From an uncultured Bacteroidota bacterium (GTDB taxonomy: Bacteria; Bacteroidota; Bacteroidia; Bacteroidales; VadinHA17): a stretch of DNA of 64,000 nt. The notes under the pieces were generated by a model that made no database searches, had not been told where the DNA came from, and worked only from the letters and a program-made list of their open reading frames with translations. Position numbers and translations under genes: made by a program. The DNA lies in contig CAIJYD010000081.1 of NCBI GenBank assembly GCA_903824785.1, forward strand, positions 1,966 to 65,965, given 5' to 3'. This document shows, piece after piece, positions 10,051 to 61,992 of this stretch (position 1 is the stretch's first letter; every line of letters begins with the position of its first letter).

Positions 10051-12267
10051 ATGAAAAAACTACAGACAATCTTAATATTCCTTCTCCTTTCACCTGCCTG
10101 CTTTTCCCAGATTGAAATTGTTAAAGACGGCAAGGCAACAGGCAGGATAATTGCCGATTCAAAATCGGTTACCGACATGCAGGCTGCCACACTTTTAAAC
10201 GACTTCGTTAAAAGGATTACCGGAGCCACCCTGCCGGTAGTTGTCCCGGGAGTGAAACAAAAATCCGGTGATATTATAATTGAAAGTATAAATCTTTCAA
10301 AACCAGTATCCAATACTTCCGGACCTGAGGAAGACGGTTTCAGGCTGACATCCGATGGCTCTCTGTTTTTCATCCGGGGAGGTAAAGGTTCAGGAACAAT
10401 AAACGGTGTTATAACAATACTTGAGAATTATTTTGGGGTTCAGTACTTTGCAGCAAATACCTGTTCATACGAAAAGAGAAGCGATCTGAAACTGCCTGAA
10501 AATCTTAATCATACAGAAAATCCCGGTTTCAGGTACAGGCAAACACAGGCTTACAGCATTGCAAAAGACCCGATGTATAAGACCTGGCATCGACTGGAAG
10601 AACCCGGTGAGATTTTTGCGGCCGGTTACTGGGTACATACATTCGACAGAATTTTACCTTCAAATAAATTTGGCAAAACTCATCCCGAATACTATTCATT
10701 CATTAATGGTGAGCGACGCCCTGGCGCGGCAAGTCAGTGGTGTCTTACCAATGAGGATGTCTTTGAGCTTGCGGCAAAACGTATCGACTCGATATTCAAA
10801 GCAAATCCGGGACAGAAAATGATATCAGTAAGCCAGAACGACGGAAACTTCACAAACTGCACCTGCGATAACTGCAGAAAGATTGATGAAGCTGAAGGTG
10901 CTCCTTCAGGAAGCATAATTTATTTTATGAACAAACTGGCAGCCCGTTTCCCGGATAAGGAATTTTCAACACTGGCATACCTCTATTCGATGATTCCTCC
11001 AAAAAACATCAAACCACTGCCCAATGTGAACATAATGCTGTGTGATATTGACTGTTTCAGAGAAGTCCCCCTTACTGATAATCCATCAGGTCAGCACTTC
11101 CTGAAAAGCCTCGAAGGCTGGTCTAAGATCTCAGATAATATTTTTGTATGGGACTATGGAATTAACTTCGATAATTATGTCTCGCCCTTTCCAAATTTCC
11201 ATATCCTTCAGGCAAATATGAAGCTCTTTAAAAAGAATAATGTTAATATGCATTTCTCACAGATAGCAGGAAGCAAAGGAGGTGATTTTTCTGAACTAAG
11301 GAGTTATGTGGTTGCTAAGCTGCTATGGAATGTAAACTGCAATGTTGACTCGGTTATTCAATCTTTCCTGAAAGGATACTATGGGAAGGCTGCACCATTC
11401 CTTTATCAGTACATGAAAATTGAAGAAGGGGCATTGCTGGGAAGCAATATTCCGCTATGGATTTATGACACTCCTATTACTCATAAGACCGGTATGCTGA
11501 ATCCGAATATGATAAAGAGTTACCGTAAACTGTTTGACGAAGCAGAAACAGCTGTGGCTTCTGACAGTGCTTTCCTTAAACGGGTAATGCAGCAACGTCT
11601 GTCAATTCAGTTTGCGGAACTGGAAATTGCCAGAACGGGAGCTCTTGATGATGTAAAAAAAATAAAAGAAGAGCTGATACTGTTCAGAGAGAGGGCCCGG
11701 CTTCTTGGTGTCACAACTTTGAATGAGAGGAATAATACTATAAGCGAATATTGCGATCTATACCTGAAACGCAATTTGCCAAACCCAAGGATCAGCCTGG
11801 CAAGCAGTGCCTCTGTCAGTTACACATTGGCTCCGAATAAGCCCTATGATAAAATTGCTGGTAAAGCCCTTACCGACGGACTGCTGGGAGGTGCCACGTT
11901 TAATGAAAGCTGGGTAGGATGGGAAAAAAATGACGGAGAGGTTGTTATCGACCTTGGGGAAATTAAAGAGGTTGAATCGGTGGAGGCAGATTTCCTCCAT
12001 AAATTAGGCTCATGGATACTGTTACCCAAAAGCATTACCTGTTACTCTTCCACAGATAATGTCAACTTCAGCCTTATAGGTAAAAAAGAGATTGCTGAAG
12101 ATCGCTCGCCTGAAGTGAAATATGTTACTTATGGAGTCACCGCAAAAGAAAAAATCAAAACCAGATATATTAAAGTGCATGCAGAGAATGTTGGAATCGG
12201 ACCGGCATGGCACTATGGTGTTGGTTACCCTGTATGGCTTTTTATGGATGAAATATGGGTGTATTAA
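10051..12267 (+). CDS. DUF4838 protein: GH20/GH67-like N-domain, TIM-barrel core, C-terminal F5/8-like module
   Basis: Signal peptide from ATG 10051 (MKKLQTILIFLLL); EEDGFRL, HPEYYSFING.R, QWCLTN, SQNDG..CTCDNC, TLAY, VWDY; C-terminal LTDG...VVIDLG...FMDEI. Confidence 0.82.
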   Translation: MKKLQTILIFLLLSPACFSQIEIVKDGKATGRIIADSKSVTDMQAATLLNDFVKRITGATLPVVVPGVKQKSGDIIIESINLSKPVSNTSGPEEDGFRLTSDGSLFFIRGGKGSGTINGVITILENYFGVQYFAANTCSYEKRSDLKLPENLNHTENPGFRYRQTQAYSIAKDPMYKTWHRLEEPGEIFAAGYWVHTFDRILPSNKFGKTHPEYYSFINGERRPGAASQWCLTNEDVFELAAKRIDSIFKANPGQKMISVSQNDGNFTNCTCDNCRKIDEAEGAPSGSIIYFMNKLAARFPDKEFSTLAYLYSMIPPKNIKPLPNVNIMLCDIDCFREVPLTDNPSGQHFLKSLEGWSKISDNIFVWDYGINFDNYVSPFPNFHILQANMKLFKKNNVNMHFSQIAGSKGGDFSELRSYVVAKLLWNVNCNVDSVIQSFLKGYYGKAAPFLYQYMKIEEGALLGSNIPLWIYDTPITHKTGMLNPNMIKSYRKLFDEAETAVASDSAFLKRVMQQRLSIQFAELEIARTGALDDVKKIKEELILFRERARLLGVTTLNERNNTISEYCDLYLKRNLPNPRISLASSASVSYTLAPNKPYDKIAGKALTDGLLGGATFNESWVGWEKNDGEVVIDLGEIKEVESVEADFLHKLGSWILLPKSITCYSSTDNVNFSLIGKKEIAEDRSPEVKYVTYGVTAKEKIKTRYIKVHAENVGIGPAWHYGVGYPVWLFMDEIWVY

Positions 12268-13511
12268 AGAAGATTCAGATCCCGTATAAATGGGAACTTC
12301 TGGTTTTGTTATGGTTTGCCTTTTTTCTTAATCTGGCTGATCGCCAGATCTTCAATATTGTTCTCCCTTCCATTCGTGACGATCTGAATTTGTCAGATGC
12401 CAACATGGGATTAATATCAACTATCTTCCTGATTATTTACGGGTTATTGGTTCCGCTGGGAGGGATACTTGGAGACAGGATAAATAAAAAATATATCCTT
12501 ATCTTCAGTCTGCTTATCTGGAGTACCGCAACAGTTGGCACTGGTTTATGTTTTTCTCTTATTCAGCTCATATTCCTGAGAAGCATAGCATTAGGCGGAA
12601 GTGAAGCTTTTTATAATCCTACTGCCAGTTCGCTGATAACCGAATTTCACCGGAATACCAGGGCAACAGCCTTAGCAATACATCAGACAGCTTTATACGC
12701 AGGTATCGTCGGAAGCAGTGTTCTTACAGGCTACATTGCTGATTTATTGGGATGGAGGATGGCTTTCTACATTTTTGGTACATCGGGTATTTTACTGGCA
12801 ATAATTCTATATTTCAGGCTTGTAAAATCCTCGCCGACCGCCGGAGTACAAATCGTTTCAGATAACAGGAAAAGTATCAGAGAAGTGCTGAAGATGTTTT
12901 TTACAAAGCCAACAGCAGTACTATTAACACTGGCTTTTGCCGGAATGCAATTTGCAGGAGTTGGTTTTCTGACCTGGATGCCCACCTTTTTACACGAAAA
13001 TTTTGGTTTCTCACTTGCCAGATCCGGCTTTGATTCAACATTTTATCATCATGCCGCGGCATTTATCGGTGTTCTTGCAGGTGCAAGAATTGCTGATAAA
13101 CTTGCACAGAAATACATCAGAGTACGACCTATTGTTCAGATGATGGGACTGTTGGCAGCAATACCATTTATTATCCTGATTGGTAAAAGCGATTCAATAA
13201 TAGTTATTTATGTCGCCCTGGCAATCTTTGGATTCAGCCGTGGAATCTATGACTCAAATCTGCTGGCAGCTCTTTATGATGTTATCGAGATTCCTTACAG
13301 GGCAACTGCTACAGGTTTATTGCTGATGGGTGGGTTTATTGTCGGAGCCGCCTCTCCTTATATTCTTGGGGTGCTTAAACCGGCATTTGGCTTGGCCAAT
13401 GGACTTGCATTTTTATCAGTCGGCTTTATGTTCGCCTCATTATGCATTGCGATTGCAGTAATATTCTTCTATAAAAAAGATAATATCAATAATTTGGTAA
13501 TCAATAAATAA
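12255..13511 (+). CDS. MFS transporter (spinster/ACS-like)
   Basis: LN.ADRQ, G.LGDR, R...G.SEAFY.P, RATA motifs; about 12 TM helices; overlaps the upstream stop. Confidence 0.9.
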   Translation: MGVLKKIQIPYKWELLVLLWFAFFLNLADRQIFNIVLPSIRDDLNLSDANMGLISTIFLIIYGLLVPLGGILGDRINKKYILIFSLLIWSTATVGTGLCFSLIQLIFLRSIALGGSEAFYNPTASSLITEFHRNTRATALAIHQTALYAGIVGSSVLTGYIADLLGWRMAFYIFGTSGILLAIILYFRLVKSSPTAGVQIVSDNRKSIREVLKMFFTKPTAVLLTLAFAGMQFAGVGFLTWMPTFLHENFGFSLARSGFDSTFYHHAAAFIGVLAGARIADKLAQKYIRVRPIVQMMGLLAAIPFIILIGKSDSIIVIYVALAIFGFSRGIYDSNLLAALYDVIEIPYRATATGLLLMGGFIVGAASPYILGVLKPAFGLANGLAFLSVGFMFASLCIAIAVIFFYKKDNINNLVINK

Positions 13512-13512: not shown

Positions 13513-14580
13513 ATGGATACTTTGAATTCCAAAGAAAGAGTTCTTGCTGCCATAAGGCATGAAGAAACAATTCGTATTCCCATCACTTTTGATGCCGACC
13601 CAGAAGTATATAAAGTGCTGCATAGTCATCTTGGTCTGGTTACCAAGGAGGAGCTTTTCGACAAACTTCATGTCGATACATGGATGATACTGCCGGGTAA
13701 CTTCAAATATCCGCGGGAAGAGGAGAACAAAAAGGAGAAGACAACAATCTGGGGATTCAAAACTGTTGTCACCGAGTATTCGGGTGGCACCTACGATGAG
13801 ATCTGCTTAAATCCACTTGCCGGAAAGGATGAGATCTCAGATATAAAAGCATACAAATGGCCTTCACCTGACATTCTTGATTTTTCGCATTTTCCGAAAG
13901 AAGCCAGCCGTCATTCAGACAGGGCAATAATAGGAGTTTTTACCTGGGGATCATATTTCATTGCCTCTTTTGTAAGGGGACTGGAAAACCTTATGATGGA
14001 TTTTGCCATAAGAAGAGATTATGTTGACTACCTTTTCAAAACTATCAGTGAGATCTCAGGTGCGGCTCTGACAAAGATGCTGGAATCGTACGGAGATGGG
14101 ATAGATATAGTTTACATGGCGGATGACTATTGTTCGCAGGATGCCCCGCTGTTTAGTCCAGATGACTTTAAAGAATTTGTTGTCCCTTATCTGACTCATC
14201 TGGTTGACATAACTCACAAACATAATAAGAAGTTTCTGTTGCATGTATGTGGTGCCGTAAGGCCCTTGCTGCCAATGATAATTGATGCAGGGGTAGATAT
14301 GCTGGAACCAATACAGATCCGTGCTGCAGGTATGGATCCGGCGGGATTGAAAAAAGATTTTGGCAGGGATATCTGTTTTTACGGAGGCGTTGACCTCCAG
14401 CAGATCATGTGCAAAGGAACACCGCTACAGGTTGCTGATGAGGTTAAGAGACTTATCGACATCCTTGGCCGCGATGGCGGTTTTATCCTTGGTCCCGGAC
14501 ATACATATATCCAGATTGACAGTCCTGTTGCAAATATCCTGTCAATGTATGATACTGCATTTTCGTACAGGAGGAAGTAG
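13513..14580 (+). CDS. Uroporphyrinogen decarboxylase/MtaA-CmuA (URO-D/CIMS) family protein
   Basis: SKERVLAAI...RIP, RGLENLMMD, ADDY, LHVCG, LKKDFG..ICFYGGVD, GGFILGPGH; no HemE RQAGR motif. Confidence 0.88.
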   Translation: MDTLNSKERVLAAIRHEETIRIPITFDADPEVYKVLHSHLGLVTKEELFDKLHVDTWMILPGNFKYPREEENKKEKTTIWGFKTVVTEYSGGTYDEICLNPLAGKDEISDIKAYKWPSPDILDFSHFPKEASRHSDRAIIGVFTWGSYFIASFVRGLENLMMDFAIRRDYVDYLFKTISEISGAALTKMLESYGDGIDIVYMADDYCSQDAPLFSPDDFKEFVVPYLTHLVDITHKHNKKFLLHVCGAVRPLLPMIIDAGVDMLEPIQIRAAGMDPAGLKKDFGRDICFYGGVDLQQIMCKGTPLQVADEVKRLIDILGRDGGFILGPGHTYIQIDSPVANILSMYDTAFSYRRK

Positions 14581-14735: not shown

Positions 14736-16178
14736 TCAGTTGGATTTAACCAGTTTTAATGCCACGTCTGTGATATAAGGCGGCGAAGTGATAGTTGTCC
14801 ATCCTCCCGGATGTTTATTTAAGGAAGAAACAGTCTCTGCGGCTCCCTTTGTATCTATCCATTTAAGGGTATAAGTACCTGCCTGCAAATTTACAACTAA
14901 ATGTGAAACGACACTTGAAGTATCTTTCCTGGAAAGGTAAAACGCCATTACTTTACTCTCCTCAATTAGTCCGTAAACGGATGTATTTTCCTCATCTTTC
15001 AACCTGACTGTTTCATCTCCTGCAGGCTTCATATTGATATAACTGAGCGATTGCATGAACTCGGCAAGTATTTTAAACTGGTTGCGAAGGATTTTTCCTC
15101 CCCCTCCGGGCTGTCCGGGGTCTATTTTAAAACTGCCATCTTCATTATCCGCTGTAAAAGAGTAATCGAGATGATTGAACAACCCGCCGCCGGCCATAAT
15201 GAAATTCCAGGCTTCGGTACGGTATGTTGCATCGCCTGTCCCGTTAAAACCTGTTTCATTATCACCAACAACACTATTAAGATGCCGGTTCATAGCCACC
15301 GTAACCGGCGGTTTCGCATAATGGAAATTATATATTGAAACACCCTGACGCAGGTCCGGAACCTTCCTGAAACCGTTAGCAACATTATTGGAAATAAGGT
15401 GTTTGGCGGGAAAATCCTTCCCGGCAGCCACCACAATTCGCGTCATCTGATCTTCCCATTCCCTCAGGGCCAGAGTATCTCCGAAATATGGTTCATTACA
15501 GACCTCATAATAGAGATTATCAAAGTCTTTCAGTTCAGAAATTATTTTCCTGACCATCTTTTCCTGAATATCCAGGATCTCCGGATGTCTTAGTGTAAGT
15601 ATCTCCTTGTGGTCTTTAATGTTACCGATGCCGTTAACATTATTTATTATATTCAACGGAGACAATTTCCACTGAATGGTATCATAAAAATTTGAAAAAA
15701 GATCGAGTTCAACGATAACATCTCTTTTGCCTGCTTCAGTTATAAAATCTTTTAATCTTGAGAAATAGGCTGTATCCCATACCGAAAGGTCAAATTTATT
15801 ACCTCCGTTGGAATATCCCGGTTCGCTGCTTCTTGCCCAGGGACAAATATATCGCTGAGGTGCCGGTGCCAGAGTGTTTTTTCTGATCCCGAACGCCCCC
15901 ACCGGTTCCACATATACTCCTGAAAAAGTACGGGTTACATTAAGTCCTGATGCAGCAACCTCGTTCAGGTAAGTCACATAATCAAAATCGAGATTCATAA
16001 CAGCACCGTAATGCTCCGTAGAGCCAATCAGAATTGCCGGCTTTCCCCGGAAAAGAAAATAGTTCGGGTTTTGCGGGTGAAGGGATAGAGGTAGCTGAGG
16101 TCCGGTGCTCTTTCCGCAGGAAATTACCAGGAAGAGAACAAGAACAATACTGAGTAGCTTAACCGGTCTGTGGATCAT
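14736..16178 (-). CDS. Clan GH-A (GH5-like/DUF4038-like) glycoside hydrolase lipoprotein
   Basis: Lipobox VISC; HPQNPNYFLFRGKP, KFDL..W...YF.RL, YEVCNEP (acid/base), DNETGF (nucleophile-like), C-terminal Y.LKWID domain. Confidence 0.7.
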   Translation of the reverse strand: MIHRPVKLLSIVLVLFLVISCGKSTGPQLPLSLHPQNPNYFLFRGKPAILIGSTEHYGAVMNLDFDYVTYLNEVAASGLNVTRTFSGVYVEPVGAFGIRKNTLAPAPQRYICPWARSSEPGYSNGGNKFDLSVWDTAYFSRLKDFITEAGKRDVIVELDLFSNFYDTIQWKLSPLNIINNVNGIGNIKDHKEILTLRHPEILDIQEKMVRKIISELKDFDNLYYEVCNEPYFGDTLALREWEDQMTRIVVAAGKDFPAKHLISNNVANGFRKVPDLRQGVSIYNFHYAKPPVTVAMNRHLNSVVGDNETGFNGTGDATYRTEAWNFIMAGGGLFNHLDYSFTADNEDGSFKIDPGQPGGGGKILRNQFKILAEFMQSLSYINMKPAGDETVRLKDEENTSVYGLIEESKVMAFYLSRKDTSSVVSHLVVNLQAGTYTLKWIDTKGAAETVSSLNKHPGGWTTITSPPYITDVALKLVKSN

Positions 16179-16224
16179 TTTTTCTATTTATTGACTTTTA
16201 ATTTTTATACTAATGCAAGTTTCT

Positions 16225-27477: not shown

Positions 27478-27497
27478 CATTAACCATTAACCATTAA
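27478..27497. repeat. CATTAAC x about 3 (reverse orientation of the TAATGGT-family heptamer), forming the 3' end of the epimerase gene
   Basis: cattaac cattaac cattaa; encodes ...LMVNG* on the minus strand. Confidence 0.7.
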
Positions 27498-31476: not shown

Positions 31477-31482
31477 AATTAT

Positions 31483-44001: not shown

Positions 44002-44006
44002 ATGGC

Positions 44007-46221: not shown

Positions 46222-46285
46222 AACAATCATATTTAGCAATACTCAATATTCCGAAAACAGAGACAAAAGAGGTAAACACTCCTGT

Positions 46286-47584: not shown

Positions 47585-47594
47585 AGCTGTAGTA

Positions 47595-50216: not shown

Positions 50217-50222
50217 AGTTAA

Positions 50223-52187: not shown

Positions 52188-52268
52188 GCCGGTTACGATA
52201 TGTTTAAATTGTTTTTAATCAACATCTTACTTACATTAAAATTCATTCAGCTGCCAGACTATTCCGGC

Positions 52269-54119: not shown

Positions 54120-54173
54120 GTCACTATTTTTAAACATTGTTGTCCTGTAAAACTTCAAAATAATATTTCTTTT

Positions 54174-54330
54174 AATATCACGCTGCTCTGCAGCATATTT
54201 TAGCGGCAGAACGTCATGATATTTGTGGTAAGTATGGGAAATTTTAGATTTTAGCGGCAGAGCCGCCTTAATATTTGTAGAAAGCATAGAGAAATTCAAA
54301 AATAAGCCCTGTAGGGGCGTGATATTTGAG
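54174..54330. repeat. REP/BIME-like cluster of four short palindromic units
   Basis: Hairpin cores GCTGC-TCT-GCAGC, GCGGC-AGA-(degenerate), GCGGC-AGA-GCCGC and GCCCT-GTA-GGGGC, each linked to an ATATT(TG) tail; outer units are inverted (AATATCACGC ... GCGTGATATT). Confidence 0.7.
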
Positions 54331-54368
54331 AATATATTACAGGTAACCATATTTAATTGAGTTTAGAA

Positions 54369-55499
54369 TTATTTACCGGACACCGATGTTTTTTTAACAT
54401 AATCAAAAGGCAGATTATTGTAGGCTCTGGCCAGAAGAGCTATATTACGCTCATCCCCTTTCAGACTATCAACTGAATTGGAAAGATAATAATCTACCGG
54501 AGGCATTATAGATCCGAGAACCGGTTTGGTAAAACCATAAAGTCCCACTTTTTCCTTTATTGCAGCCGGAATTACCACCGACGGATCCTGTCCGTTCCAG
54601 TTGGCAAGACATGTTACCAGACGGGTGTGGCTCCCCAGCATACTGCGCACAGACTGAGTGGTTGCAATATCTCCCGCTTCATTGAGAACCCAGTCGACCT
54701 CCTTAAGCATATCCGAACCGGCAATATCTTTGCTGGTAAGCTGGCAGGAAGTGAGCCAGATAATGCAATCGGGTTTTGTTTTTTTCACAGTTTCCCTGAT
54801 TCTTTTCCAGCATCTGTCAATTGCTTTTCTGCGGAACTGAAGTTCAATTTCTGGAGTAATCTTTTCCATGCCGGGAAAGGGCTGGCCCATAAGCTCTGCA
54901 AACATGACCTGCTCACAATCAATCCATTTCAAAGGAGGATATGGTTCCATTGTGGCACCTGGGTTCCAGAGCCAGTCAATAAAGACCCCATCCATGCCTG
55001 TCTTTTTAATAGCATCTTCAATAGATGCACAAAGAAAATCGAGATACTTTGTTGTGTATGGAATATGAGGCAATGCCGGGAATCCATAGCTTAGATCCGG
55101 ATTTTCCTGCCCCCATCTGGTATTGGAGCCTGCGCAGAAATATCCAAAAACCTTGATATTCTTTTCATGGGCTAACCTTACCTCTTCAGTAAGGAAATCG
55201 TATTTTAATCCCGGCTGTTCAGGTACTATCCCGTTCTTATACCAGGCATAACCGTTACATGAAACGGCAAATGACTGAATAACATTACATCCTAAAGAGA
55301 CATACCAGTTAACATGGTCTGCCGGATTTGCATCAGCCCATAATCCGGGCCCTGAAAAAGCATTAGGCCCTCCCGGTCCCCAGTTAAAATCAATGTTATA
55401 GGCTTTTATTGAATCATCTGCTTCTACCGGTGTACTACTTTTACATCCTTGCAGAAGGGCGATAAAAACTGCAGCTGAAAAAAACAGAGAATTTTTCAT
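54369..55499 (-). CDS. Lipoprotein with GH29/GHL6-like TIM barrel (putative glycoside hydrolase)
   Basis: Lipobox LQGC; FA.SCNGYAWY, D.L.E.V..AH..IKV.GY, MDGVFIDW, PDC.I. Confidence 0.6.
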   Translation of the reverse strand: MKNSLFFSAAVFIALLQGCKSSTPVEADDSIKAYNIDFNWGPGGPNAFSGPGLWADANPADHVNWYVSLGCNVIQSFAVSCNGYAWYKNGIVPEQPGLKYDFLTEEVRLAHEKNIKVFGYFCAGSNTRWGQENPDLSYGFPALPHIPYTTKYLDFLCASIEDAIKKTGMDGVFIDWLWNPGATMEPYPPLKWIDCEQVMFAELMGQPFPGMEKITPEIELQFRRKAIDRCWKRIRETVKKTKPDCIIWLTSCQLTSKDIAGSDMLKEVDWVLNEAGDIATTQSVRSMLGSHTRLVTCLANWNGQDPSVVIPAAIKEKVGLYGFTKPVLGSIMPPVDYYLSNSVDSLKGDERNIALLARAYNNLPFDYVKKTSVSGK

Positions 55500-55751: not shown

Positions 55752-56426
55752 ATGAAAAGAAGTGAAGTAAATGCCATTATTAAAGGATTGGAGATATTTT
55801 TTGAAGAACAGAAGTTTATGTTACCTGAATGGGCATCGTGGAGCCCTGAAAAATGGAAAGGCACTTATGAAAAATGTTCTGAGATAGTCGATAATAAACT
55901 TGGCTGGGATATAACTGATTTCGGAAGCGGTGATTTCAACAGGCAGGGGTTATCTCTTTTTACTATCCGGAATGGAAACTGGGATAAAAAAGACAAGATG
56001 TATTGTGAAAAGATTATGGTTGCAGGTGAAGAGCAGGAGACTCCAATGCATTTTCACTGGAACAAGACTGAGGATATAATCAACAGAGGTGGCGGAAACC
56101 TGGTAATGGAGCTCTTTATGGCTACTGACGATGATAAATTTTCAGATAAACCCGTGACAGCAAGTATTGATGGTATTCTTACTACCGTTAAGGCAGGTGT
56201 TCCCCTGATATTATATCCCGGCCAGAGTATCTGCCTGAAATCGAGGGTATATCACAGGTTCTATGGTCAGAAAGGAAATGGCAGGGTATTGATCGGTGAG
56301 GTAAGTATGGTAAATGATGATGCCAACGACAACCGTTTTTATGATACTATTGGCAGATTCCCTGAGATAGAAGAGGATGTAAAACCGGTTCACCTTCTGG
56401 TTAACGACTATTCAAAATATTTATAA
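55752..56426 (+). CDS. D-lyxose/D-mannose family sugar isomerase (cupin)
   Basis: MKRSEVN, LGWDITDFG, TPMHFH..K.EDIINRGGG, YHRF, GEVS.VNDD..DNRF. Confidence 0.92.
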   Translation: MKRSEVNAIIKGLEIFFEEQKFMLPEWASWSPEKWKGTYEKCSEIVDNKLGWDITDFGSGDFNRQGLSLFTIRNGNWDKKDKMYCEKIMVAGEEQETPMHFHWNKTEDIINRGGGNLVMELFMATDDDKFSDKPVTASIDGILTTVKAGVPLILYPGQSICLKSRVYHRFYGQKGNGRVLIGEVSMVNDDANDNRFYDTIGRFPEIEEDVKPVHLLVNDYSKYL

Positions 56427-56451
56427 CCGGTATCCGGGAAAGTGTAATAAT

Positions 56452-57642
56452 ATGAAGTCAGAAAAAATAATTGTTTCAGGTGTCGGCTGCTGTTTGGTTG
56501 ATCTGTTATTCAATGATATAGATTTCGGAAGCGACACCATTCGTCCCTATCTCTCATTAACACGCGGCGACGGCGGCTTAACCCCCGGCCATCTTGTTTT
56601 CAGGGAGGAATTTGAAAAAAACAGCGGGAGCTCCTTCAGCGAGGTTCTCAGTAAGATAACAGGAGGTAGAACGCACGACAAGATAAATATCGGAGGCCCA
56701 TCAATAGTATCACTTATAAATACTGCTCAGCTGACTGACAGTAACCAATGCGAAGTCAGATTCTACGGCCGTGGCGGCGATGATGAAATCGGGAAATACC
56801 TCCTCTCCTCCCTGAAAAAAACGCCTGTCATTCTAAAAGATTTCAAGCTTATTAATAAAGAGACACCTTCTACTGTTGTGCTATCTGATCCGACCTACGA
56901 GAACGGCCATGGTGAGAGAATGTTTATCAACTCAATAGGCGCTGCATGGGAATACGGTCCTGGGGATCTGGATGACGATTTTTTTAACTCCTCAATTGTT
57001 GTTTTTGGCGGAACTGCTCTGGTTCCGCAGATTCATGATAATATGACAACACTGCTTAAAAGAGCAAAATTGAAAGGATGCATTACAATTGTCAATACAG
57101 TATTTGATTTCAGGAACGAAAAAGCAAATCCTTCAGAAAGATGGCCGCTTGGTGAAAGTGATGAGAGTTACGGTTATATCGATCTTCTGATTGCCGATCA
57201 GGTAGAGGCATTCCGCCTGAGCGGAGAAAATGATACCGAAGCTGCTGTAAAGTTTTTCCGCGACAAAAAAGTCTCATCACTGATTATCACCAATGGATCG
57301 AAAAATATCACAGCATATTCCGACGGAGCTTTTTTCAAAGCAACCGGATCTTTTGAGATGCCTGTGTCACAGAAAGTTATTGATGAACAAAAGATAGCCA
57401 CAAAGGGAGATACAACAGGGTGCGGGGATAATTTTGCCGGTGGCGTTATTGCATCTGTTATTGCCCAGCTGCATACCGGAATCAAACATCCCGACCTTCC
57501 GGAAGCCTGCTCTCTGGGTATTGTCGCCGGAGGGTTTGCCTGTTTCTATCTTGGAGGAACATATTTTGAAGAGAATCCCGGAGAAAAACGGGCTAAAATG
57601 AAACCATATTATGATGCTTACAGAGAACAGACAAAAGGTTGA
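56452..57642 (+). CDS. PfkB-family carbohydrate kinase
   Basis: NIGG, G.DD.G, ER.F, IITNG, DTTGCGDNFAGG PfkB signature. Confidence 0.9.
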   Translation: MKSEKIIVSGVGCCLVDLLFNDIDFGSDTIRPYLSLTRGDGGLTPGHLVFREEFEKNSGSSFSEVLSKITGGRTHDKINIGGPSIVSLINTAQLTDSNQCEVRFYGRGGDDEIGKYLLSSLKKTPVILKDFKLINKETPSTVVLSDPTYENGHGERMFINSIGAAWEYGPGDLDDDFFNSSIVVFGGTALVPQIHDNMTTLLKRAKLKGCITIVNTVFDFRNEKANPSERWPLGESDESYGYIDLLIADQVEAFRLSGENDTEAAVKFFRDKKVSSLIITNGSKNITAYSDGAFFKATGSFEMPVSQKVIDEQKIATKGDTTGCGDNFAGGVIASVIAQLHTGIKHPDLPEACSLGIVAGGFACFYLGGTYFEENPGEKRAKMKPYYDAYREQTKG

Positions 57643-58840
57643 AACCCATAAAATAGTTATTTTCGGAGCCGGGAAAATAGGCCGCTCATTTATTGGCCAG
57701 CTCTTCGGATGCGGCGGGTATAATGTGGTCTTTACTGATGTTGACCCGGTAATGATCAGTATGCTGAATAAAAACGGGAACTACCGGGTAATAATAAAAG
57801 GAGAAAAGGAGGAGGAGATAATCGTCCCGAATGTTACGGCAATATCTGCTTTTGAAAGAGATAAGGTAGCAGAAGCGGTATCCACGGCAGGGATAGTGGC
57901 TGTATCGGTCGGAAAAAACGCCCTCGAAAAGGTGATTCCCGTTATTGCGGAAGGACTTATGATGAGACATAAAAACAATCCTGGGGTACCTCTTGATATA
58001 ATAATTGCAGAAAATATGAGGTCGGCGGCTGATTTTACCGGAATGCAGCTCAGGAAAAATCTTCCGCAGGGATTTCCTCTCGAAGAACTTGTAGGACTTA
58101 TCGAAACCAGTATAGGCAAAATGGTCCCGATTATACCTCTTGCCGAACTGGAAAAAGACCCGCTCGTGGTATTTGCCGAGCCATATAATACTCTGATACT
58201 AGATGGCAAAGGATTTAAATCTCCAATTCCGGAGATAAAAGGTCTTGCACCTAAAAGCAATATTAAAGCATGGGTCGACCGTAAGGCATTTATTCATAAT
58301 CTCGGACATGCTGCTGCTGCCTATTACGGAAATTTTCTTCATCCCGATGCTGTCTATATGTTTGAGATACTTGACCATCAGGAGGTTTTTCGCTTTACCA
58401 GGGAGGTTATGATGCAATCGGCTGATATTCTGAGAAGCGCCTATCCCGATGATTTTACATCTGCAGATCTTGAAGACCATATTGATGATCTGATCTTTCG
58501 TTTCAGGAATAAAGCACTGCAGGATACAATATTCAGGGTGGGTCAGGATCTGCCAAGAAAGCTGGGTTCCGACGATCGTTTTATGGGTGCGATACACCTT
58601 GCACAAGAGCACGGAAAACCCTTCGACCTGATAGTCAGGGCAATGTCGTTCGGGTTATGTTTCAGGGCGAAAGATGAAGAGGGGAAATTTTATCCTGATG
58701 ATCTGGCTTTACGGGATGCTCTTGGGACCGATTTCGAATCAACACTTATCAATGAACTGTTCCTTGACCCTGTTGCTGACCAAAACAGCATTACAGAACT
58801 TAAAAAGTTATACCATGACCTTTGCAATAAAACCGGCTGA
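57611..58840 (+). CDS. mtlD: Mannitol-1-phosphate 5-dehydrogenase family
   Basis: FGAGKIGRSFIG, AEN, EPY, RK.F.HN.GH, RF.N..L.D...RVG...RKL..DR; start codon uncertain (overlaps the kinase gene). Confidence 0.8.
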   Translation: MMLTENRQKVETHKIVIFGAGKIGRSFIGQLFGCGGYNVVFTDVDPVMISMLNKNGNYRVIIKGEKEEEIIVPNVTAISAFERDKVAEAVSTAGIVAVSVGKNALEKVIPVIAEGLMMRHKNNPGVPLDIIIAENMRSAADFTGMQLRKNLPQGFPLEELVGLIETSIGKMVPIIPLAELEKDPLVVFAEPYNTLILDGKGFKSPIPEIKGLAPKSNIKAWVDRKAFIHNLGHAAAAYYGNFLHPDAVYMFEILDHQEVFRFTREVMMQSADILRSAYPDDFTSADLEDHIDDLIFRFRNKALQDTIFRVGQDLPRKLGSDDRFMGAIHLAQEHGKPFDLIVRAMSFGLCFRAKDEEGKFYPDDLALRDALGTDFESTLINELFLDPVADQNSITELKKLYHDLCNKTG

Positions 58841-58906
58841 TGAATTCCGGATATCAATAACCATAAAATATAACTTAAGAAGAAGTGAAACTAAAACCAG
58901 AATGAA

Positions 58907-59545
58907 ATGAATAATACTGAAATCATTAGTACCGATATTAAAGCCTCTCTGACCAAATCAGGTCTTCTGCTTTTCCTCTCAGGGTTCATGATTTTTATGG
59001 GGATCATCACCGGTGAGATATTTTACACACTGGATTTCAATACCCGCGACAATTATATAAGCGAGCTTGCAGCAGCTGTACCGCCAAATGCCATTACCCC
59101 TGAACCATCCGCAACAATATTCAATTTAACAATGATAGTGACAGGGATAATGATAATGTTTGCTGCTTTTTATCTTCAGATTATCTTTAAAAAGCTTTTA
59201 ACGACCATACCTGCTGCGCTCTTCGGATTCGGAGTACTCGGAGTGGGTATATTCCCCGGAAATATTCATCCATGGCATGGTATTTTTGCCCTCATCTTAT
59301 TTGTCGCTGGTGGTGTTGGAGCCATAACCTCTTATAAGATTGTAAGTTCTCCTCTTCGCTATATCTTTATCATACTGGGTATCACAGCCCTGGTGTTTTT
59401 GATTGCGTATAAATATTTTGTTCCTGCCCTGGGTGTCGGAGGAACTGAACGGTGGGTCCTTTATCCTGTTATCTTCTGGATTACCGGGCTTGGTGGTTAC
59501 CTGCTCGGAATAAAAGATGAATACAAACGGATTTCACATGTGTAA
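58907..59545 (+). CDS. DUF998 family membrane protein
   Basis: N.ISEL, IFN, GVGIFP, H...A...F, G..ER; about 6 TM helices. Confidence 0.75.
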   Translation: MNNTEIISTDIKASLTKSGLLLFLSGFMIFMGIITGEIFYTLDFNTRDNYISELAAAVPPNAITPEPSATIFNLTMIVTGIMIMFAAFYLQIIFKKLLTTIPAALFGFGVLGVGIFPGNIHPWHGIFALILFVAGGVGAITSYKIVSSPLRYIFIILGITALVFLIAYKYFVPALGVGGTERWVLYPVIFWITGLGGYLLGIKDEYKRISHV

Positions 59546-59564: not shown

Positions 59565-60581
59565 ATGACAAGACGTGAAATAATCAGAACAGTCCTGGAC
59601 GGAGGCAATCCTCCATATACCCCCTGGTCGTTCAAGTTCACCATGGAGCCTAAAAAAATCCTTATGGATCATTTTAAAACTGATGATCTGGATAATATTC
59701 TCTACAACCATATCCTGATGCTGGGAGCCGACATCGGTTTTTTTGACAAGGTTGGCGATAATCTTTACCGCGATGTTTTCGGGGCAGTTTGGGACCGCAG
59801 CATAGATAAGGATATTGGCAATATCAAGGGAAATATTATTACGGAACCATCCTTAAGCAATTACACCTTCCCTGATCCGTACGACAAACGTTATTTTGCC
59901 GATATAGAACCATCGATCAGGGCAAAACCGGATATGTTCAGGCTGTTCCAGATAGGCTTTTCTCTTTATGAACGTGCCTGGACATTACGTGGCATGGAGA
60001 ACCTTCTGATGGATTTAATGGTCAATCCGGGTTTTGTTCACGAACTTCTTACAGCCATTGCCGATTATAACATTGCCCACCTTAAAGAGGCAATGAAATA
60101 TGATATTGATGCAGTTTCATTTGGTGATGACTGGGGACAACAGCATGGACTTATAATGGGTTATGATGCCTGGAAAGAGTTCATTTATCCTCAGTTAAAA
60201 CGAATGTACAAAGCTGTCCATGACGGAGGGAAGTATGTATTTATTCACTCCTGCGGTGATGTTGATGAGCTTTTTGACGACCTTACCGAAATTGGAGTCA
60301 ACTGCTTCAACCCTTTTCAGCCTGAAGTAATGGATGTAGATGATCTGATGATTAAATACCGCGGCAGGCTTACCTTTCATGGAGGCTTGTCGATACAGAA
60401 GACCCTCCCCTACGGAACGGTGGAAGAGGTACGTCTGGCATCAGAAAAGCTTCTTAAAGCCGGTCTTGAAGGATCGTATATCTTTTCCCCATCTCATGCA
60501 GTTGAAGGAGATACATCTTTAGATAACATGCTGACATTTATTGAAGCCGCAAAATCCCAGGTCAGGTCAATAAGAAACTAA
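59565..60581 (+). CDS. URO-D/CIMS family protein (H-x-C...H type)
   Basis: [51 protein letters not shown]. Confidence 0.88.
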
Positions 60582-60582: not shown

Positions 60583-61992
60583 ATGCAAGAACAACCAAAA
60601 ATCAACACGAAATATGTCTTATTCCTGGCACTGGTATCAGCTATGGGAGGCCTTCTATTCGGATACGACTGGGTAGTTATCGGTGGAGCAAAACCCTTTT
60701 ATGAACGCTATTTTGACATAACCTCCTCCGCAACCTTTCAGGGATTTGCAATGAGCAGTGCCCTTTTTGGCTGTCTTATCGGAGCTGCTGTTTCGGGGTA
60801 TATCACCGATAAATACGGACGAAAGCTCCCCCTGCTTTTTGCAGCTTTCCTCTTTATTTTCACATCACTTGGGACCGGTGCTTTCAACTCATTCTCGTTG
60901 TTCATTACATTCAGGATCATTGGTGGAATAGGTATCGGAATAGCATCAAATGTTTCACCGGTTTATATTGCTGAAATAGCCCCTGCGCACATGCGCGGAA
61001 AGCTTGTTGCCATTAATCAGCTTACCATTGCCTTAGGAGTCCTGGGAGCTCAGCTTACCAATATGCTGATTGCCGATCCTGTCCCGGTTGGGGCAAGTGA
61101 TCTTCTAATCAGCAACTCATGGAACGGGCAGATGGGCTGGAGATGGATGTTCTGGGCATGCAGTGTCCCGGCCACCCTCTTTTTTGTTTTAATGTGGCTT
61201 GTTCCTGAAAGCCCCAGATGGCTGGCTAAAGCAGGCAAAAGAGATAAAGCCGCACGAATATTTGAGAGAATAGGCGGAAGTGAATATGCCAGAAAAGAGA
61301 CGGAAGAAATTTTTACCACTCTTAATAATTCTGATGACGATGGCAAAAAGGTGAATTTCTCTCATCTCTTTTCGAAACAGCTTATGCCGGTTATTATGCT
61401 TGGAATAATACTTGCGGTATTTCAGCAATGGTGTGGCATAAATGTAATTTTCAATTATGCTGAAGAGATCTTTTCGGCAGCAGGTTACGGAATATCGGGA
61501 ACATTATTCAATATTGTGCTTACCGGAAGCGTCAGCCTTATATTTACTATTGTCTCTATGTTCATGGTAGACCGGTGGGGTCGCAAGGCACTGATGCTCA
61601 CTGGAGCAGGCGGACTTGCAATTGTTTATGTAATTATTGCAACAAGTTATTTCCTTCAGATAAAAGGTGTTTTTCTGCTTTTCTGGGTTGTAACAGCAAT
61701 AAGTATCTACAGCCTCACTTTAGCTCCAATAACATGGGTTTTGCTCTCTGAGATCTTCCCGAATAAAGTACGGGGTCATGCAATGTCGGTAGCCACATTT
61801 GCCCTCTGGCTCTCCTGTGCCATATTAACTATCTCATTCCCATTCCTTAACAGGGCATTTGGGACATCCGGGACATTTACTGTTTATGCAGTCATCTGTT
61901 TCCTGGGCTTCTTCTACATTCTGAAAAAGCTCCCTGAAACAAAAGGAAAATCTCTTGAACAGATAGAGAAAGAGTTATCCGTCAAATTCTGA
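60583..61992 (+). CDS. Sugar porter family MFS transporter (XylE/AraE-like)
   Basis: AMGGLLFGYDWVVIGGAKPF, YIAEIAP..RG, PESPRWL, FQQWCGIN, DRWGRK, LSEIFP, PETKGKSLE. Confidence 0.95.
   Translation: MQEQPKINTKYVLFLALVSAMGGLLFGYDWVVIGGAKPFYERYFDITSSATFQGFAMSSALFGCLIGAAVSGYITDKYGRKLPLLFAAFLFIFTSLGTGAFNSFSLFITFRIIGGIGIGIASNVSPVYIAEIAPAHMRGKLVAINQLTIALGVLGAQLTNMLIADPVPVGASDLLISNSWNGQMGWRWMFWACSVPATLFFVLMWLVPESPRWLAKAGKRDKAARIFERIGGSEYARKETEEIFTTLNNSDDDGKKVNFSHLFSKQLMPVIMLGIILAVFQQWCGINVIFNYAEEIFSAAGYGISGTLFNIVLTGSVSLIFTIVSMFMVDRWGRKALMLTGAGGLAIVYVIIATSYFLQIKGVFLLFWVVTAISIYSLTLAPITWVLLSEIFPNKVRGHAMSVATFALWLSCAILTISFPFLNRAFGTSGTFTVYAVICFLGFFYILKKLPETKGKSLEQIEKELSVKF

Follow-up and report, generated by a model that had tools for sequence, protein, structure and literature searches.

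O-Demethylases of acetogens and Desulfitobacterium, as well as the archaeal Mto system, consist of a substrate methyltransferase (MT1), a corrinoid protein, a second methyltransferase (MT2), and an activating enzyme. Each MT1 is usually encoded with its own corrinoid protein in a single operon, and the substrates of known O-demethylases are aryl methyl ethers. HemE is a cofactor-free enzyme encoded in a single copy. We know of no demonstration that a corrinoid enzyme of the URO-D fold cleaves an aliphatic sugar methyl ether, and literature searches found no paper describing URO-D/corrinoid sugar demethylation of the kind considered here. In aerobic marine bacteria, 6-O-methyl-D-galactose is demethylated oxidatively by a cytochrome P450/ferredoxin system (Reisky et al. 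2018, via PMC12316285; PMC10033563), and PMC12316285 describes the anaerobic route of sugar demethylation as not elucidated. PMC9324843 reports a non-pyrrolysine MttB homolog clustered with a homocysteine S-methyltransferase, a corrinoid protein, and an activation protein.

Gene organization of the locus

The window, i.e., the whole 64,000-nt stretch of DNA analyzed here, comes from a genome referred to below as G000. The initial annotation had listed five URO-D-fold paralogs in it, and a profile search of the window ORFs recovered all of them at the listed positions (PF01208; designated win1 to win5 in Table 1), each scoring above the Pfam URO-D cutoff of 23.9 bits.

Table 1. Features of the window, with their strands and the matches that define them
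Feature	Coordinates	Strand	Evidence
DUF4838 (GH20-related) secreted protein	9997..12267	+	Pfam DUF4838, 376 bits
MFS_1 transporter, anion:cation-symporter type	12255..13511	+	Pfam MFS_1, 169 bits
win1, URO-D	13513..14580	+	Pfam, 80.8 bits
GH5-like and GH123_N-family secreted proteins	14736..19200	-	Pfam; signal-peptide-like N termini
win2, URO-D, most MtaA-like	20802..21824	-	Pfam, 225.9 bits
win3, URO-D (HxD), between sugar porter and win2	21887..22993	-	Pfam, 47.6 bits
Sugar-porter MFS transporter (XylE/GlcP-like)	23003..24355	-	Pfam Sugar_tr, 352.9 bits; TIGR00879, 351.8 bits, above cutoff
win4, URO-D (HxD...H)	26379..27452	-	Pfam, 134.8 bits
AGE-family cellobiose/mannobiose 2-epimerase-like enzyme, cytoplasmic	27480..28736	-	Pfam GlcNAc_2-epim, 152.7 bits
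Four GH38 alpha-mannosidase-family genes	28786..40126	-	Pfam Glyco_hydro_38N/38C in all four; signal-peptide-like N termini
Other secreted glycan-degrading genes	40153..55499	-	Pfam; gaps of 6-95 nt
Cytoplasmic hexose-entry genes	55752..59545	+	Pfam
win5, URO-D (HxC, NPFQ, H)	59565..60581	+	Pfam, 82.8 bits
Sugar-porter MFS transporter (XylE-like)	60583..61992	+	Pfam Sugar_tr, 362 bits; TIGR00879, 338 bits, above cutoff
DUF2961 protein, signal-peptide-like N terminus, convergent with the win5 operon	62004..63239	-	Pfam, 237 bits

The pairing of four paralogs with MFS genes holds as previously described: win1, win2, win3, and win5 each share an operon with MFS or sugar-porter genes. The gene for win1 follows the MFS_1 gene after a 1-nt gap, in a plus-strand run (9997-14580) whose first gene, encoding the DUF4838 protein, overlaps the MFS_1 gene by 13 nt. 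A 1-nt gap also separates win5 from the downstream Sugar_tr gene, and in the minus-strand run the other Sugar_tr gene is followed after 9 nt by win3 and, after a further 62 nt, by win2. The fifth paralog, win4, was correctly placed after the epimerase: it lies 27 nt downstream, as the last gene of a long glycoside hydrolase operon. Two of the three carriers pass the NCBIfam sugar-porter cutoff; the best NCBIfam match of the third, which precedes win1 and has 8 predicted transmembrane (TM) segments, is the D-galactonate transporter subfamily TIGR00893 (130 bits, below the cutoff). The epimerase, which lacks a hydrophobic N terminus, scores 293 bits on NF041848, also below the cutoff.

Beyond the GH38 genes, the minus-strand secreted set encodes GH36-like, GH123_N, GH63/MGH1-like, GH20, and GHL6 proteins, an M14 peptidase, a weak MGH1-like match, and an unassigned 550-aa ORF. 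The hexose-entry genes code for a D-lyxose/mannose isomerase, a PfkB kinase, a mannitol-dehydrogenase family protein, and a DUF998 membrane protein, and the same gene order precedes win5 orthologs in many metagenome contigs. A hexose substrate would agree with the logic of the win5 operon (mannose/lyxose isomerase, PfkB, and sugar porter) and with the presence of four GH38 genes. The DUF2961 gene is likewise found near win5 orthologs (loci L193 and L225).

Pairing of URO-D and transporter genes in G000 exceeds chance: 10 of its 22 URO-D-family ORFs have as a direct neighbor a gene whose product contains 8 or more predicted TM segments, against a background of 8.9% of all called genes (binomial p ∼7e-6), although these cases are not fully independent because clustered paralogs have a common transporter. 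In a second G000 cluster, three URO-D genes occur together with two GH38 genes.

Relationship to HemE and MtaA

None of the five proteins reaches the NCBIfam hemE cutoff of 302.95 bits, the best score being 107 bits; MtaA/CmuA models outscore hemE for all five, yet all remain far below the MtaA/CmuA cutoffs. The RQAGR motif is, as had been claimed, missing from all five and is present in both true HemE proteins from other Bacteroidota. True HemE from other Bacteroidota score 456-496 bits on PF01208 versus at most 226 for the window paralogs, and HemE is split from all paralogs in the phylogenetic tree with an SH-aLRT value of 100. Although all five are URO-D proteins by Pfam and their homologs carry the name “uroporphyrinogen decarboxylase” in source databases, some 20 copies per genome beside sugar transporters would be senseless for heme synthesis, and the sequences rule out genuine HemE; the probability that these are uroporphyrinogen decarboxylases or heme-pathway paralogs is close to nil. 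The reported absence of signal peptides agrees with a crude 10-residue hydropathy test, in which all five lack a hydrophobic N terminus; most glycoside hydrolase ORFs of the window are positive in the same test.

The earlier description of these proteins as metalloenzymes suits win2, the only one of the five with the complete MtaA-type HxC...C zinc motif, better than it suits win1 and win5 (HxC...H) or win3 and win4 (HxD). In win1, win3, and win5, the N-terminal half is not matched by the Pfam URO-D model. Among solved structures, the MtaA structure 4AY7 is the best relative of both win2 (E 2.7e-20) and win1 (E 9e-6), and in the alignment with it win2 keeps the zinc-ligand positions (LHICGN and GC). 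We regard win2 as a candidate methylcorrinoid:acceptor methyltransferase of the MT2 type.

Corrinoid toolkit in the source genome and its relatives

The window contains no gene for a corrinoid protein, RACo, or a pterin methyltransferase. Another G000 contig carries an operon, referred to here as the hub, that encodes a corrinoid protein, Pterin_bind, an MTHFR with DUF5981, and Met_synt_B12. The hub corrinoid protein (C87:9263-9931) combines B12-binding_2 and B12-binding domains and contains the motifs GDxHDxGK, SALLTTTM, and GGAP. A RACo gene (Fer2, Raco_middle, RACo_C_ter) lies 15 kb downstream of the hub operon; among 14 control genomes, PF14574, listed with the RACo evidence, has a match in Methanosarcina only. 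No URO-D gene adjoins the hub in G000, and neither the window nor the surroundings of the hub yielded a cobalamin riboswitch. The genome (97.8% complete) has about 20 URO-D paralogs and no gene of the MttB or MtaB family, so that, of the genes found in it, only the URO-D paralogs are candidates for substrate methyltransferases.

Small corrinoid proteins are encoded in each of five other Bacteroidota genomes that have 12-21 URO-D matches apiece, and eight URO-D genes of these genomes directly adjoin a corrinoid protein gene; two such operons carry orthologs of the hub corrinoid protein (54-55% identity). One cluster (L177), adjoined by genes for an SSF transporter and an HTCS-like sensor, comprises URO-D, a corrinoid protein, S-methyl_trans, DUF1638, RACo, and another URO-D. 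The corrinoid-adjacent URO-D genes are scattered over every major clade of the paralog tree, pair with four G000 paralogs (SH-aLRT 99-100), bracket the clades of win1, win3, win4, and win5, and share the variant motifs of G000 paralogs (HxD...H, HxC...N, or none). Most URO-D paralogs in every genome examined have no corrinoid protein beside them. According to our reading of the table, RACo occurs in 20 of the 401 Bacteroidota sampled, namely in G000 and in 19 others, each of the latter with two or more PF01208 matches; sampled genomes with no or one such match all lack it.

The linkage of URO-D genes to transporters is kept in other genomes at the loci of win1 and win5 orthologs. For win5, 80 metagenome loci (65-83% identity) were collected; among the 65 in which the gene directly downstream was counted, it encodes the same sugar porter (Sugar_tr) in 26 and a corrinoid protein in 18. 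At 90% identity, these 18 loci reduce to 3 clusters and therefore represent few independent lineages. Both contexts are interleaved in one clade of the win5 tree (node value 98). Orthologs with ∼67% identity to win5 form the first gene of the corrinoid-protein cassettes, and at 16 loci the order continues from the corrinoid protein to a MetH-activation-like gene and then to an MtaA-like URO-D gene. The cassettes are flanked by HTCS regulators and GH127, GH51, GH43, or GH29 genes, such as in L238 (HTCS regulator, URO-D, corrinoid protein, Met_synt_B12, URO-D, GH127, MFS_1, GH127), whose MtaA-like gene has win2 as its best G000 match, and L245 (URO-D, corrinoid protein, SSF, GH29). Both of these loci were checked with Pfam, which bears out the cassette in L238. 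We regard win5 as a candidate substrate:corrinoid methyltransferase (MT1).

Orthologs of win1 (56-83% identity) occur in many phyla and have invariant HxC, LEPIQ, and GPGH motifs. Carriers (SSF, MFS_1, or Nramp-like) are found at 13 of the 44 loci and a corrinoid protein nearby at only 1 of the 44 called loci; in L084, a corrinoid protein gene is followed by SSF and the win1 ortholog. GFO/IDH/MocA oxidoreductases stand beside win1 orthologs in 13 loci. No fused URO-D-corrinoid form of win1 was found, which is weak evidence against corrinoid dependence. Like win5, win1 is a candidate substrate:corrinoid methyltransferase. The Sugar_tr-win3-win2 operon and the pairing of win4 with the epimerase are each kept in 3 close relatives, outside of which neither win3 nor win4 has an ortholog above 36-62% identity. 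Only their tree position links win3 and win4 to corrinoid proteins; win3, on a long branch, falls in a clade (node value 95) with one corrinoid-protein-adjacent URO-D.

Predicted pathway and alternative explanations

Our preferred reading, which we hold to be about evenly poised, is that the five proteins are cytoplasmic corrinoid-dependent methyltransferases, members of a large family unrelated to HemE, that demethylate imported methylated sugars. The secreted hydrolases (four GH38, GH20, GH123-like, GH36-like, and GH63-like) would free sugars, some with methyl ethers, for uptake by the adjoining MFS and sugar-porter carriers. A substrate-specific MT1 (win1, win3, win4, or win5) would then transfer the methyl group to cob(I)alamin on the common hub corrinoid protein, from which the pterin-binding methyltransferase of the hub operon and/or the MtaA-like win2 would pass it to tetrahydrofolate and on to the MetVF-type MTHFR. 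The MetH-type activation protein and the RACo reductive activator would keep the corrinoid active, and the demethylated hexose would enter glycolysis via the isomerase and kinase encoded beside win5. If true, this could account for the removal of sugar methyl groups by bacteria living without oxygen. The corrinoid link proposed in the initial annotation has gained independent support from the complete methyl-transfer toolkit in G000, the cassettes of win5 orthologs, and the corrinoid-adjacent relatives across the tree, and comparison with other genomes makes corrinoid dependence a well-supported prediction. Action on imported sugars, also proposed there, agrees with the conserved transporter pairing. 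The analysis establishes which family the proteins belong to, how the genes are ordered, that the toolkit exists, and that orthologs are linked to sugar transporters as well as to corrinoid proteins; from this we infer O-methyl sugars as the methyl donors, the direction of transfer, the MT1 and MT2 roles, and a single corrinoid protein serving many paralogs.

It is rather unlikely, in our judgment, that most paralogs, including win1, win3, win4, and win5, are corrinoid-free metal-dependent TIM-barrel enzymes that catalyze sugar-acid decarboxylation, isomerization, or ether hydrolysis on imported sugars, with few members using the corrinoid hub. The scarcity of adjoining corrinoid proteins, the cofactor-free decarboxylation that HemE shows to be possible in this fold, the unmatched N-terminal halves, the metal motif that differs among paralogs, and the GFO/IDH/MocA neighbors of win1 orthologs, which hint at sugar redox chemistry, would all suit such enzymes. 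Against them stand the win5 orthologs that head corrinoid-protein cassettes, the corrinoid-adjacent genes with the same variant motifs in every major clade, the restriction of RACo to genomes that have additional URO-D copies, and the presence in G000 of a hub but of no other MT1 family that could be found.

The evidence for corrinoid dependence fits equally well methyltransferases that act on non-sugar donors (plant or algal methoxylated aromatics, methanol, methylated amines, or methylthiols) and deliver the methyl group to tetrahydrofolate or methionine, the sugar genes being mere neighbors. Known bacterial systems of this kind use aryl methyl ethers, the win1 carrier also scores 91.6 bits, below the cutoff, on an aromatic acid/H+ symporter subfamily, and the homocysteine S-methyltransferase domain in L177 suggests a methionine sink; a comparable idea was put forward for MttB homologs in PMC9324843. 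This explanation is nevertheless unlikely given the two carriers that pass the sugar-porter cutoff, the widely kept gene order around win5, the position of the corrinoid cassettes between HTCS regulators and glycoside hydrolase genes, and the second URO-D/GH38 cluster. Methyl transfer via corrinoids can in principle run either way, and the hub holds both a methyl-tetrahydrofolate-type methyltransferase and MTHFR, so that methyl groups might instead flow from methyl-tetrahydrofolate via the corrinoid protein to sugars of the cell's own glycans. Such a biosynthetic direction is highly improbable in catabolic operons that also encode uptake carriers, secreted hydrolases, an isomerase, and a kinase, and no glycosyltransferase or export genes were found among the window ORFs scanned.

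Comparison with known systems

The window paralogs share the Pfam family and fold of HemE but lack RQAGR, score below its threshold, and form a separate clade. With the methanogen methylcobamide:coenzyme M methyltransferases MtaA and MtbA (4AY7), they share the URO-D TIM-barrel family; MtaA and MtbA work with a small corrinoid protein, as is predicted for the window paralogs, and win2 keeps their zinc-ligand positions. In contrast to MtaA/MtbA, four of the five lack the third Cys, all score far below the MtaA/CmuA cutoffs, and they belong to a bacterium outside any methanogenesis context, where the neighboring genes encode sugar carriers and glycoside hydrolases.

The cytochrome P450/ferredoxin system similarly removes sugar O-methyl groups in a polysaccharide-utilization context and opens the sugar to central metabolism, but it needs O2, releases formaldehyde, and belongs to protein families unrelated to URO-D. 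In the cluster described in PMC9324843, MetH-like modules are split into separate proteins and joined to a substrate methyltransferase without an assigned donor. L177 is built along the same lines, a URO-D gene standing where that cluster has the MttB homolog; the MT1 folds differ, and that paper proposes no link to glycan loci.

As in the O-demethylase and Mto systems, a substrate methyltransferase, a corrinoid protein, a methylcorrinoid:tetrahydrofolate methyltransferase, and a RACo-type activator are represented in G000 or in the ortholog cassettes. Unlike those systems, G000, a glycan-degrading member of the Bacteroidota, has some 20 candidate MT1 genes scattered next to sugar transporters and a single hub, and the substrates would presumably be aliphatic sugar methyl ethers.

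Family assignment of the URO-D-like proteins

The initial annotation had listed five members of the URO-D family (PF01208) in the window (contig C81, positions 1966 to 65965); all five, referred to here as win1 to win5, are present with their coordinates unchanged and score above the Pfam cut-off (see the table). Their assignment as true HemE is ruled out by their scores against the NCBIfam hemE equivalog model TIGR01464, all of which fall below its cut-off of 302.95 bits, by the lack of the RQAGR motif, and by their separate position in a tree. RQAGR, which we take to be the N-terminal substrate-binding motif of HemE, is absent from all five proteins, as originally reported, and present in both true HemE proteins compared (from genomes G153 and G289). 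In a tree of 39 proteins, built with a quick method that provides SH-aLRT support only, HemE forms the outgroup and is separated from all 37 other proteins with a support of 100; win3, which has a long branch, is placed with little certainty.

The comparison with MtaA, also raised by the initial annotation, points the other way. The MtaA/CmuA subfamily model TIGR01463 (cut-off, 235.4 bits) and methylcobalamin:CoM methyltransferase models outscore hemE for each of the five proteins, with all scores remaining below the cut-offs, and the nearest solved structure for both win1 and win2 is MtaA of Methanosarcina mazei (4AY7). The metal site gives a mixed picture: the HxCxnC pattern, the zinc-binding motif of MtaA/CmuA, is complete only in win2, and the other four proteins deviate from it, with positions taken from the 4AY7 alignment. 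In agreement with the reported lack of signal peptides, a crude hydropathy test detects a hydrophobic N terminus in none of the five, and in most of the hydrolase ORFs of the window. ESM Atlas matches are limited to URO-D clusters without names, and no fused, longer version of win1 turned up in a search whose negative outcome is rated as weak evidence.

Features of the window and of related loci, with domains or metal-site motifs and bit scores
Feature	Location (strand)	Length (aa)	Domains or motif	PF01208	TIGR01464	TIGR01463
win1	window 13513-14580 (+)		HxC...H	80.8	no match	64.3
win2	window 20802-21824 (-)		HxCxnC	225.9	107 (best)	150.9
win3	window 21887-22993 (-)		HxD...D	47.6	no match	26.1
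win4	window 26379-27452 (-)		HxD...H	134.8	45.3	77.6
win5	window 59565-60581 (+)		HxC...H	82.8	22	70.1
TonB-dependent receptor	window 7348-9672
ATPase gene	window 19309-20628 (-)		AAA_14/DUF4143
PfkB and mannitol-dehydrogenase ORFs	window 56452-58840 (+)
Corrinoid protein	source genome, C87 hub operon, outside window, 9263-9931	222	PF02607 (B12-binding_2), PF02310 (B12-binding)
Pterin-binding methyltransferase	C87 hub operon, beside corrinoid protein	280	Pterin_bind
MTHFR	C87 hub operon	490	DUF5981
MetH-activation-domain protein	C87 hub operon	238	Met_synt_B12-like
RACo-type reductive activator	C87, 15 kb beyond hub	497	Fer2, Raco_middle, RACo_C_ter
DUF805 RNA motif	C87 locus L037, 5933-6000 (-)
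Small B12-binding protein	source genome, C134:1276-1932 (L038)	218	cap and Rossmann domains
URO-D/GH38 cluster	source genome, C78:75681-86170 (L026)
URO-D paralogue	source genome, C51:32609-33640 (L034)
Split pterin methyltransferase	genome G401, C13:66361-67179 (L136)

Gene neighborhoods in the window and in the source genome

The neighbors of these genes in the window are those given in the initial annotation. An MFS_1 carrier gene lies 1 nt before win1, a sugar porter gene begins 1 nt past the end of win5, and a second sugar porter gene opens the 23003 > 21887 > 20802 run, whose members are spaced by 9 and 62 nt. The win4 gene ends a long minus-strand operon, 27 nt after a cellobiose/mannobiose-2-epimerase-like gene; this operon encodes four GH38, GH36-like, GH63/MGH1-like, GH20, two GH123_N-family, M14 peptidase, and GHL6 proteins. 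Genes for a D-lyxose/mannose isomerase, a PfkB kinase, a mannitol-dehydrogenase-family protein, and a DUF998 protein are found 5' of win5. When the first start codon is taken for each, the ORFs for PfkB and the mannitol dehydrogenase share 32 nt, and the true start of the latter may lie further downstream. An AAA_14/DUF4143 ATPase gene separates a GH123_N gene from the operon of win2, win3, and the sugar porter; a similar gene is found near the win1 ortholog in locus L048. Rfam searches of the window and of the extracted loci L037 and L186 detected no cobalamin riboswitch.

The source genome (4.69 Mb, 97.8% complete) contains 20 Pfam URO-D matches, and a search with our own URO-D profile yielded 19 strong and 3 weak ORFs. 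The DNA sequencing runs found to contain it are lake and freshwater metagenomes, two of which may be the source; no RNA run was among those listed, a result with no bearing on expression. This genome seems to hold no true HemE, because its highest PF01208 score is 226 bits versus 456 to 496 for true HemE in other Bacteroidota, and the organism may lack the classical heme route. Proteins with at least 8 transmembrane segments, flagged by a simple hydropathy count, are direct neighbors of 10 of the 22 URO-D ORFs, versus 8.9% of all genes; by Pfam, the carriers include MFS_1, Sugar_tr, RhaT (adjoining a GH29 fucosidase), SSF, and SDF proteins. Most of the paralogs align with HxC or HxD, and the third MtaA ligand is Cys in only win2 and one other paralog and His in most others. 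The URO-D/GH38 combination of the window recurs on contig C78, where three URO-D paralogs are interleaved with two GH38-family genes and a sodium:dicarboxylate symporter gene. On contig C51, a URO-D gene adjoins genes for an oxidoreductase and the glycine-cleavage P protein, which is likewise folate linked, and is orthologous (SH-aLRT, 100) to the first gene of a URO-D/pterin methyltransferase/MTHFR/corrinoid protein operon in the Bacteroidota genome G229.

Corrinoid methyl transfer components

Outside the window, the source genome carries an operon, referred to here as the hub, for a corrinoid protein, a pterin-binding methyltransferase, MTHFR, and a MetH-type activation protein, with a RACo-type reductive activator encoded on the same contig. 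The corrinoid protein contains GDLHDIGK, SALLTTTM, and GGAP, conserved in 8 or 9 of 9 aligned corrinoid proteins; these correspond to DxHxxG, SxL, and GG, which we take to be the cobalamin-binding signature. The hub is flanked by genes for a GFO/IDH/MocA oxidoreductase, a DUF6807 protein, and an FGGY sugar kinase, and the RACo gene lies near a GH78 rhamnosidase gene. Since this nearly complete genome contains no genes of the MttB or MtaB families, the URO-D paralogs are the sole candidates found for the substrate:corrinoid methyltransferases (MT1) that would serve the hub. DUF1638 was not found in this genome. The complex predicted for win1 with the hub corrinoid protein scored 0.87 and one unrelated control scored 0.70; the prediction counts neither way.

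Orthologs of the hub pterin methyltransferase (76 to 81% identity), together with the corrinoid protein and MTHFR, are encoded in four related Bacteroidales-type MAGs, all four of which contain win1 orthologs and three of which contain win3 and win4 orthologs. In one genome, G401, the methyltransferase is split into three pieces in different frames, owing to either frameshifts or assembly errors. Among the 150 matches listed (57 more exist) in 400 other Bacteroidota, there is no close ortholog: the matches are only long MetH-like frames of at least 570 aa with at most 39% identity. This result reads as "no close ortholog found" rather than "absent" because G229 encodes a divergent standalone homolog (27% identity).

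Of the 401 Bacteroidota sampled, 20 encode RACo. Apart from the source genome, these (19 genomes) all have at least two PF01208 matches, and no genome with zero or one such match is among them. No P value is attached to this profile because relatives among the genomes are not independent samples. Of the 14 genomes used as controls, only Methanosarcina had a PF14574 match.

Two further features of the source genome deserve mention. A small B12-binding protein encoded on contig C134 amid PAS, histidine kinase, and response regulator genes may serve in cobalamin-based sensing and not in carrying methyl groups. An Rfam DUF805 RNA motif (78.3 bits versus a gathering score of 51.1) is located on C87 just upstream of the hub and precedes a small zinc-ribbon/TM2-domain gene.

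Conserved neighborhoods in other genomes

Linkage of URO-D and transporter genes, for which the initial annotation suggested a neighborhood survey, is conserved in other genomes. A metagenome scan detected 484 win5 relatives, and the best 80 loci (65 to 83% identity) were examined, with a downstream gene called in 65 and an upstream gene in 69. The gene downstream of the win5 ortholog codes for a XylE-like sugar porter in 26 of the 65 and for a corrinoid protein in 18; the latter collapse to 3 clusters at 90% identity. Loci of the sugar porter type often carry upstream the isomerase, PfkB, mannitol-dehydrogenase, and DUF998 string of the window, and in 16 loci genes for a MetH-activation-like protein and an MtaA-like URO-D protein come next after the corrinoid protein gene. 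In the ortholog tree, built by the same quick method, sugar porter loci L225 and L228 fall inside a clade (support, 98) with corrinoid protein loci.

Compact cassettes are found on gut-metagenome contigs, flanked by hybrid two-component (HTCS) regulators of a kind typical of Bacteroidales polysaccharide utilization loci (PULs). In locus L238, Pfam identifies a divergent hybrid two-component regulator, URO-D, corrinoid protein, Met_synt_B12, a second URO-D (198 bits), GH127, MFS_1, and another GH127, with GH51 and GH2-like genes upstream; L245 combines URO-D, corrinoid protein, SSF transporter, and GH29 fucosidase genes, and L224 has a GH43/GH2-like gene immediately upstream of the cassette. 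When the four cassette proteins of L238 are compared with the source genome, their best matches are win5 (68%), the corrinoid (44%) and activation (36%) proteins of the hub, and win2 (27.5%); this genome therefore seems to carry an L238-type system in dispersed form.

For win1, 741 matches were detected, the best 120 of which, the window's own protein aside, have 66 to 83% identity. The 49 genome loci with at least 56% identity come from MAGs labeled Bacteroidales, Kiritimatiellae, Latescibacterota, Planctomycetota, Calditrichota, Verrucomicrobiota, Lentisphaeria, Acidobacteriota, and others. Genes were called with a crude longest-ORF caller that fails in some high-GC loci, and counts rest on the 44 loci left after setting aside 5 in which the ortholog was uncalled. 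A transporter with at least 8 transmembrane segments (SSF, MFS_1, or Nramp-like) lies directly beside the win1 ortholog in 13 of the 44, versus ∼6% of flank genes, and GH109-like GFO/IDH/MocA oxidoreductases are a repeated feature (13 loci). Among the called loci, a corrinoid protein gene is found near the win1 ortholog only in L084 of a Calditrichaeota MAG, in the order corrinoid protein, SSF, win1 ortholog. Four loci (L060, L066, L067, and L070) have the order SSF transporter, win1 ortholog, Nramp-family carrier, with a GATase1_like protein preceding the carrier in L066 and L067 and a xylose-isomerase-like TIM-barrel protein following it in L066; metal supply and substrate transport are candidate roles for this carrier.

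Most of the 400 other sampled Bacteroidota have one high-scoring HemE, and about 50, counted by eye, have at least two PF01208 matches, copy numbers being lower bounds (at most 5 candidates were scored per genome). Five Bacteroidota with large expansions (12 to 21 URO-D matches each) all encode small corrinoid proteins, and eight of their URO-D genes directly adjoin a corrinoid protein gene. G229 encodes URO-D, pterin methyltransferase, MTHFR, and a corrinoid protein 54% identical to that of the hub in one run; its locus L177, which adjoins an SSF carrier and an HTCS-like sensor, encodes URO-D, corrinoid protein, a homocysteine-S-methyltransferase domain, DUF1638, RACo, and a second URO-D. In G289, genes for a corrinoid protein (55% identical to that of the hub), an activation protein, and URO-D are found together. 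In the 39-protein tree, corrinoid protein-adjacent genes pair with source genome paralogs on contigs C56, C51, C78 (76908), and C115 (125859) with a support of 99 to 100, and a corrinoid protein-adjacent clade (83 to 85) is sister to the clade with win1. The motif variants of the corrinoid protein-adjacent proteins span the same range as those of the source genome paralogs. Outside Bacteroidota, a URO-D paralog query returned 54 to 77 first-look candidates, unscored and not to be read as copy numbers, in five genomes labeled Latescibacterota (the highest, with 77), Lentisphaeria, Victivallaceae, Pirellulales, and Phycisphaerae (G403, G436, G437, G439, and G413), which suggests much larger expansions of the family.

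Proposed function

The URO-D paralog family is probably corrinoid dependent, with the highest likelihood for win5 and win2. Judging from metal-site motifs and cassette positions, win1, win3, win4, and win5 would be MT1 enzymes and win2 a methylcorrinoid:acceptor methyltransferase (MT2)-type protein. Each paralog would be tied to an importer and would act on small molecules freed by neighboring hydrolases, and the methyl groups would be passed to the shared corrinoid protein and thence to tetrahydrofolate. Methylated sugars are indicated as donors because two of the carriers are sugar porters, win5 is accompanied by hexose entry genes, and the cassettes lie in a hydrolase and HTCS context. The initial proposal that URO-D/MtaA-fold enzymes demethylate imported O-methyl sugars is partly supported, and is considerably strengthened on its corrinoid side by the hub, the cassettes, and the tree; O-methyl sugars are plausible candidate substrates, and for the proposal as a whole, the chances appear evenly balanced. 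One could speculate that win5 and the four GH38 genes point to an O-methyl-mannose-type hexose and that the anion-type MFS carrier beside win1 suits a methylated uronic or aldonic acid. Co(I) attack on an aliphatic methyl ether requires activation of the leaving alkoxide by a Lewis or Brønsted acid, for which methanol activation by MtaB, a protein of a different fold, is a precedent.

More tentatively, a large URO-D-fold radiation might represent the anaerobic route to sugar O-demethylation: each paralog would be a substrate-specific methyl-ether:corrinoid methyltransferase with an importer of its own, and many of them would feed one shared corrinoid/THF/MTHFR hub. The family would run to dozens of paralogs in Bacteroidales, Latescibacterota, Kiritimatiellae, Planctomycetota, and Lentisphaeria that degrade glycans anaerobically. 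Sugars bearing methyl groups are common in the glycans of algae, plants, invertebrates, and microbes, and the only characterized route for their demethylation is, to our knowledge, the oxygen-requiring P450 one. A passage of PMC12316285 attributes the demethylation of 6-O-methyl-galactose in aerobes to a P450 system and describes the anaerobic mechanism as not elucidated, as of 2025. A full-text literature search found no paper that connects PULs or the demethylation of sugars with corrinoid or URO-D-family proteins; a passage of 10.1101/2024.10.31.621369 concerns a methanogen. If true, the proposed pathway would be a new route from methylated glycans to one-carbon metabolism and would explain the anaerobic use of 6-O-methyl-galactose, O-methyl-mannose, 2-O-methyl-fucose, or 4-O-methyl-glucuronate. 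Its confirmation would lead to reannotation of thousands of "uroporphyrinogen decarboxylase" genes, connect the breakdown of glycans with the demand for vitamin B12 and with one-carbon metabolism in anoxic habitats (sediments, lakes, and guts), and bring aliphatic (sugar) ethers, in addition to aryl ones, within the reach of corrinoid methyl ether chemistry. The locus and its relatives offer a testable candidate set of substrate methyltransferases, corrinoid carrier, THF methyltransferase, and activators.

Comparison with known systems

A Bacteroidota PUL in the strict sense contains an adjacent SusC/SusD-like pair. The window has no such pair: a Pfam scan of all its non-nested ORFs of at least 150 aa found no SusD-family match, and its sole TonB-dependent receptor is partnered by DUF4249; the locus may extend beyond the window. 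A passage of PMC9324843 proposes a similar cluster of split MetH modules, centered on an MttB homolog with an unknown methyl donor. Multicomponent O-demethylase systems comprise a small corrinoid protein, a pterin-binding methyltransferase, and a RACo or MetH-type activator, all three of which are encoded in the source genome. In such systems, MT1 is usually encoded in the same operon as the corrinoid protein, whereas the hub has no adjoining URO-D gene; this arrangement is found instead in the ortholog loci, namely, in 18 of the 65 win5 loci, for the eight URO-D genes of the five expanded Bacteroidota, and in the win1 locus L084.
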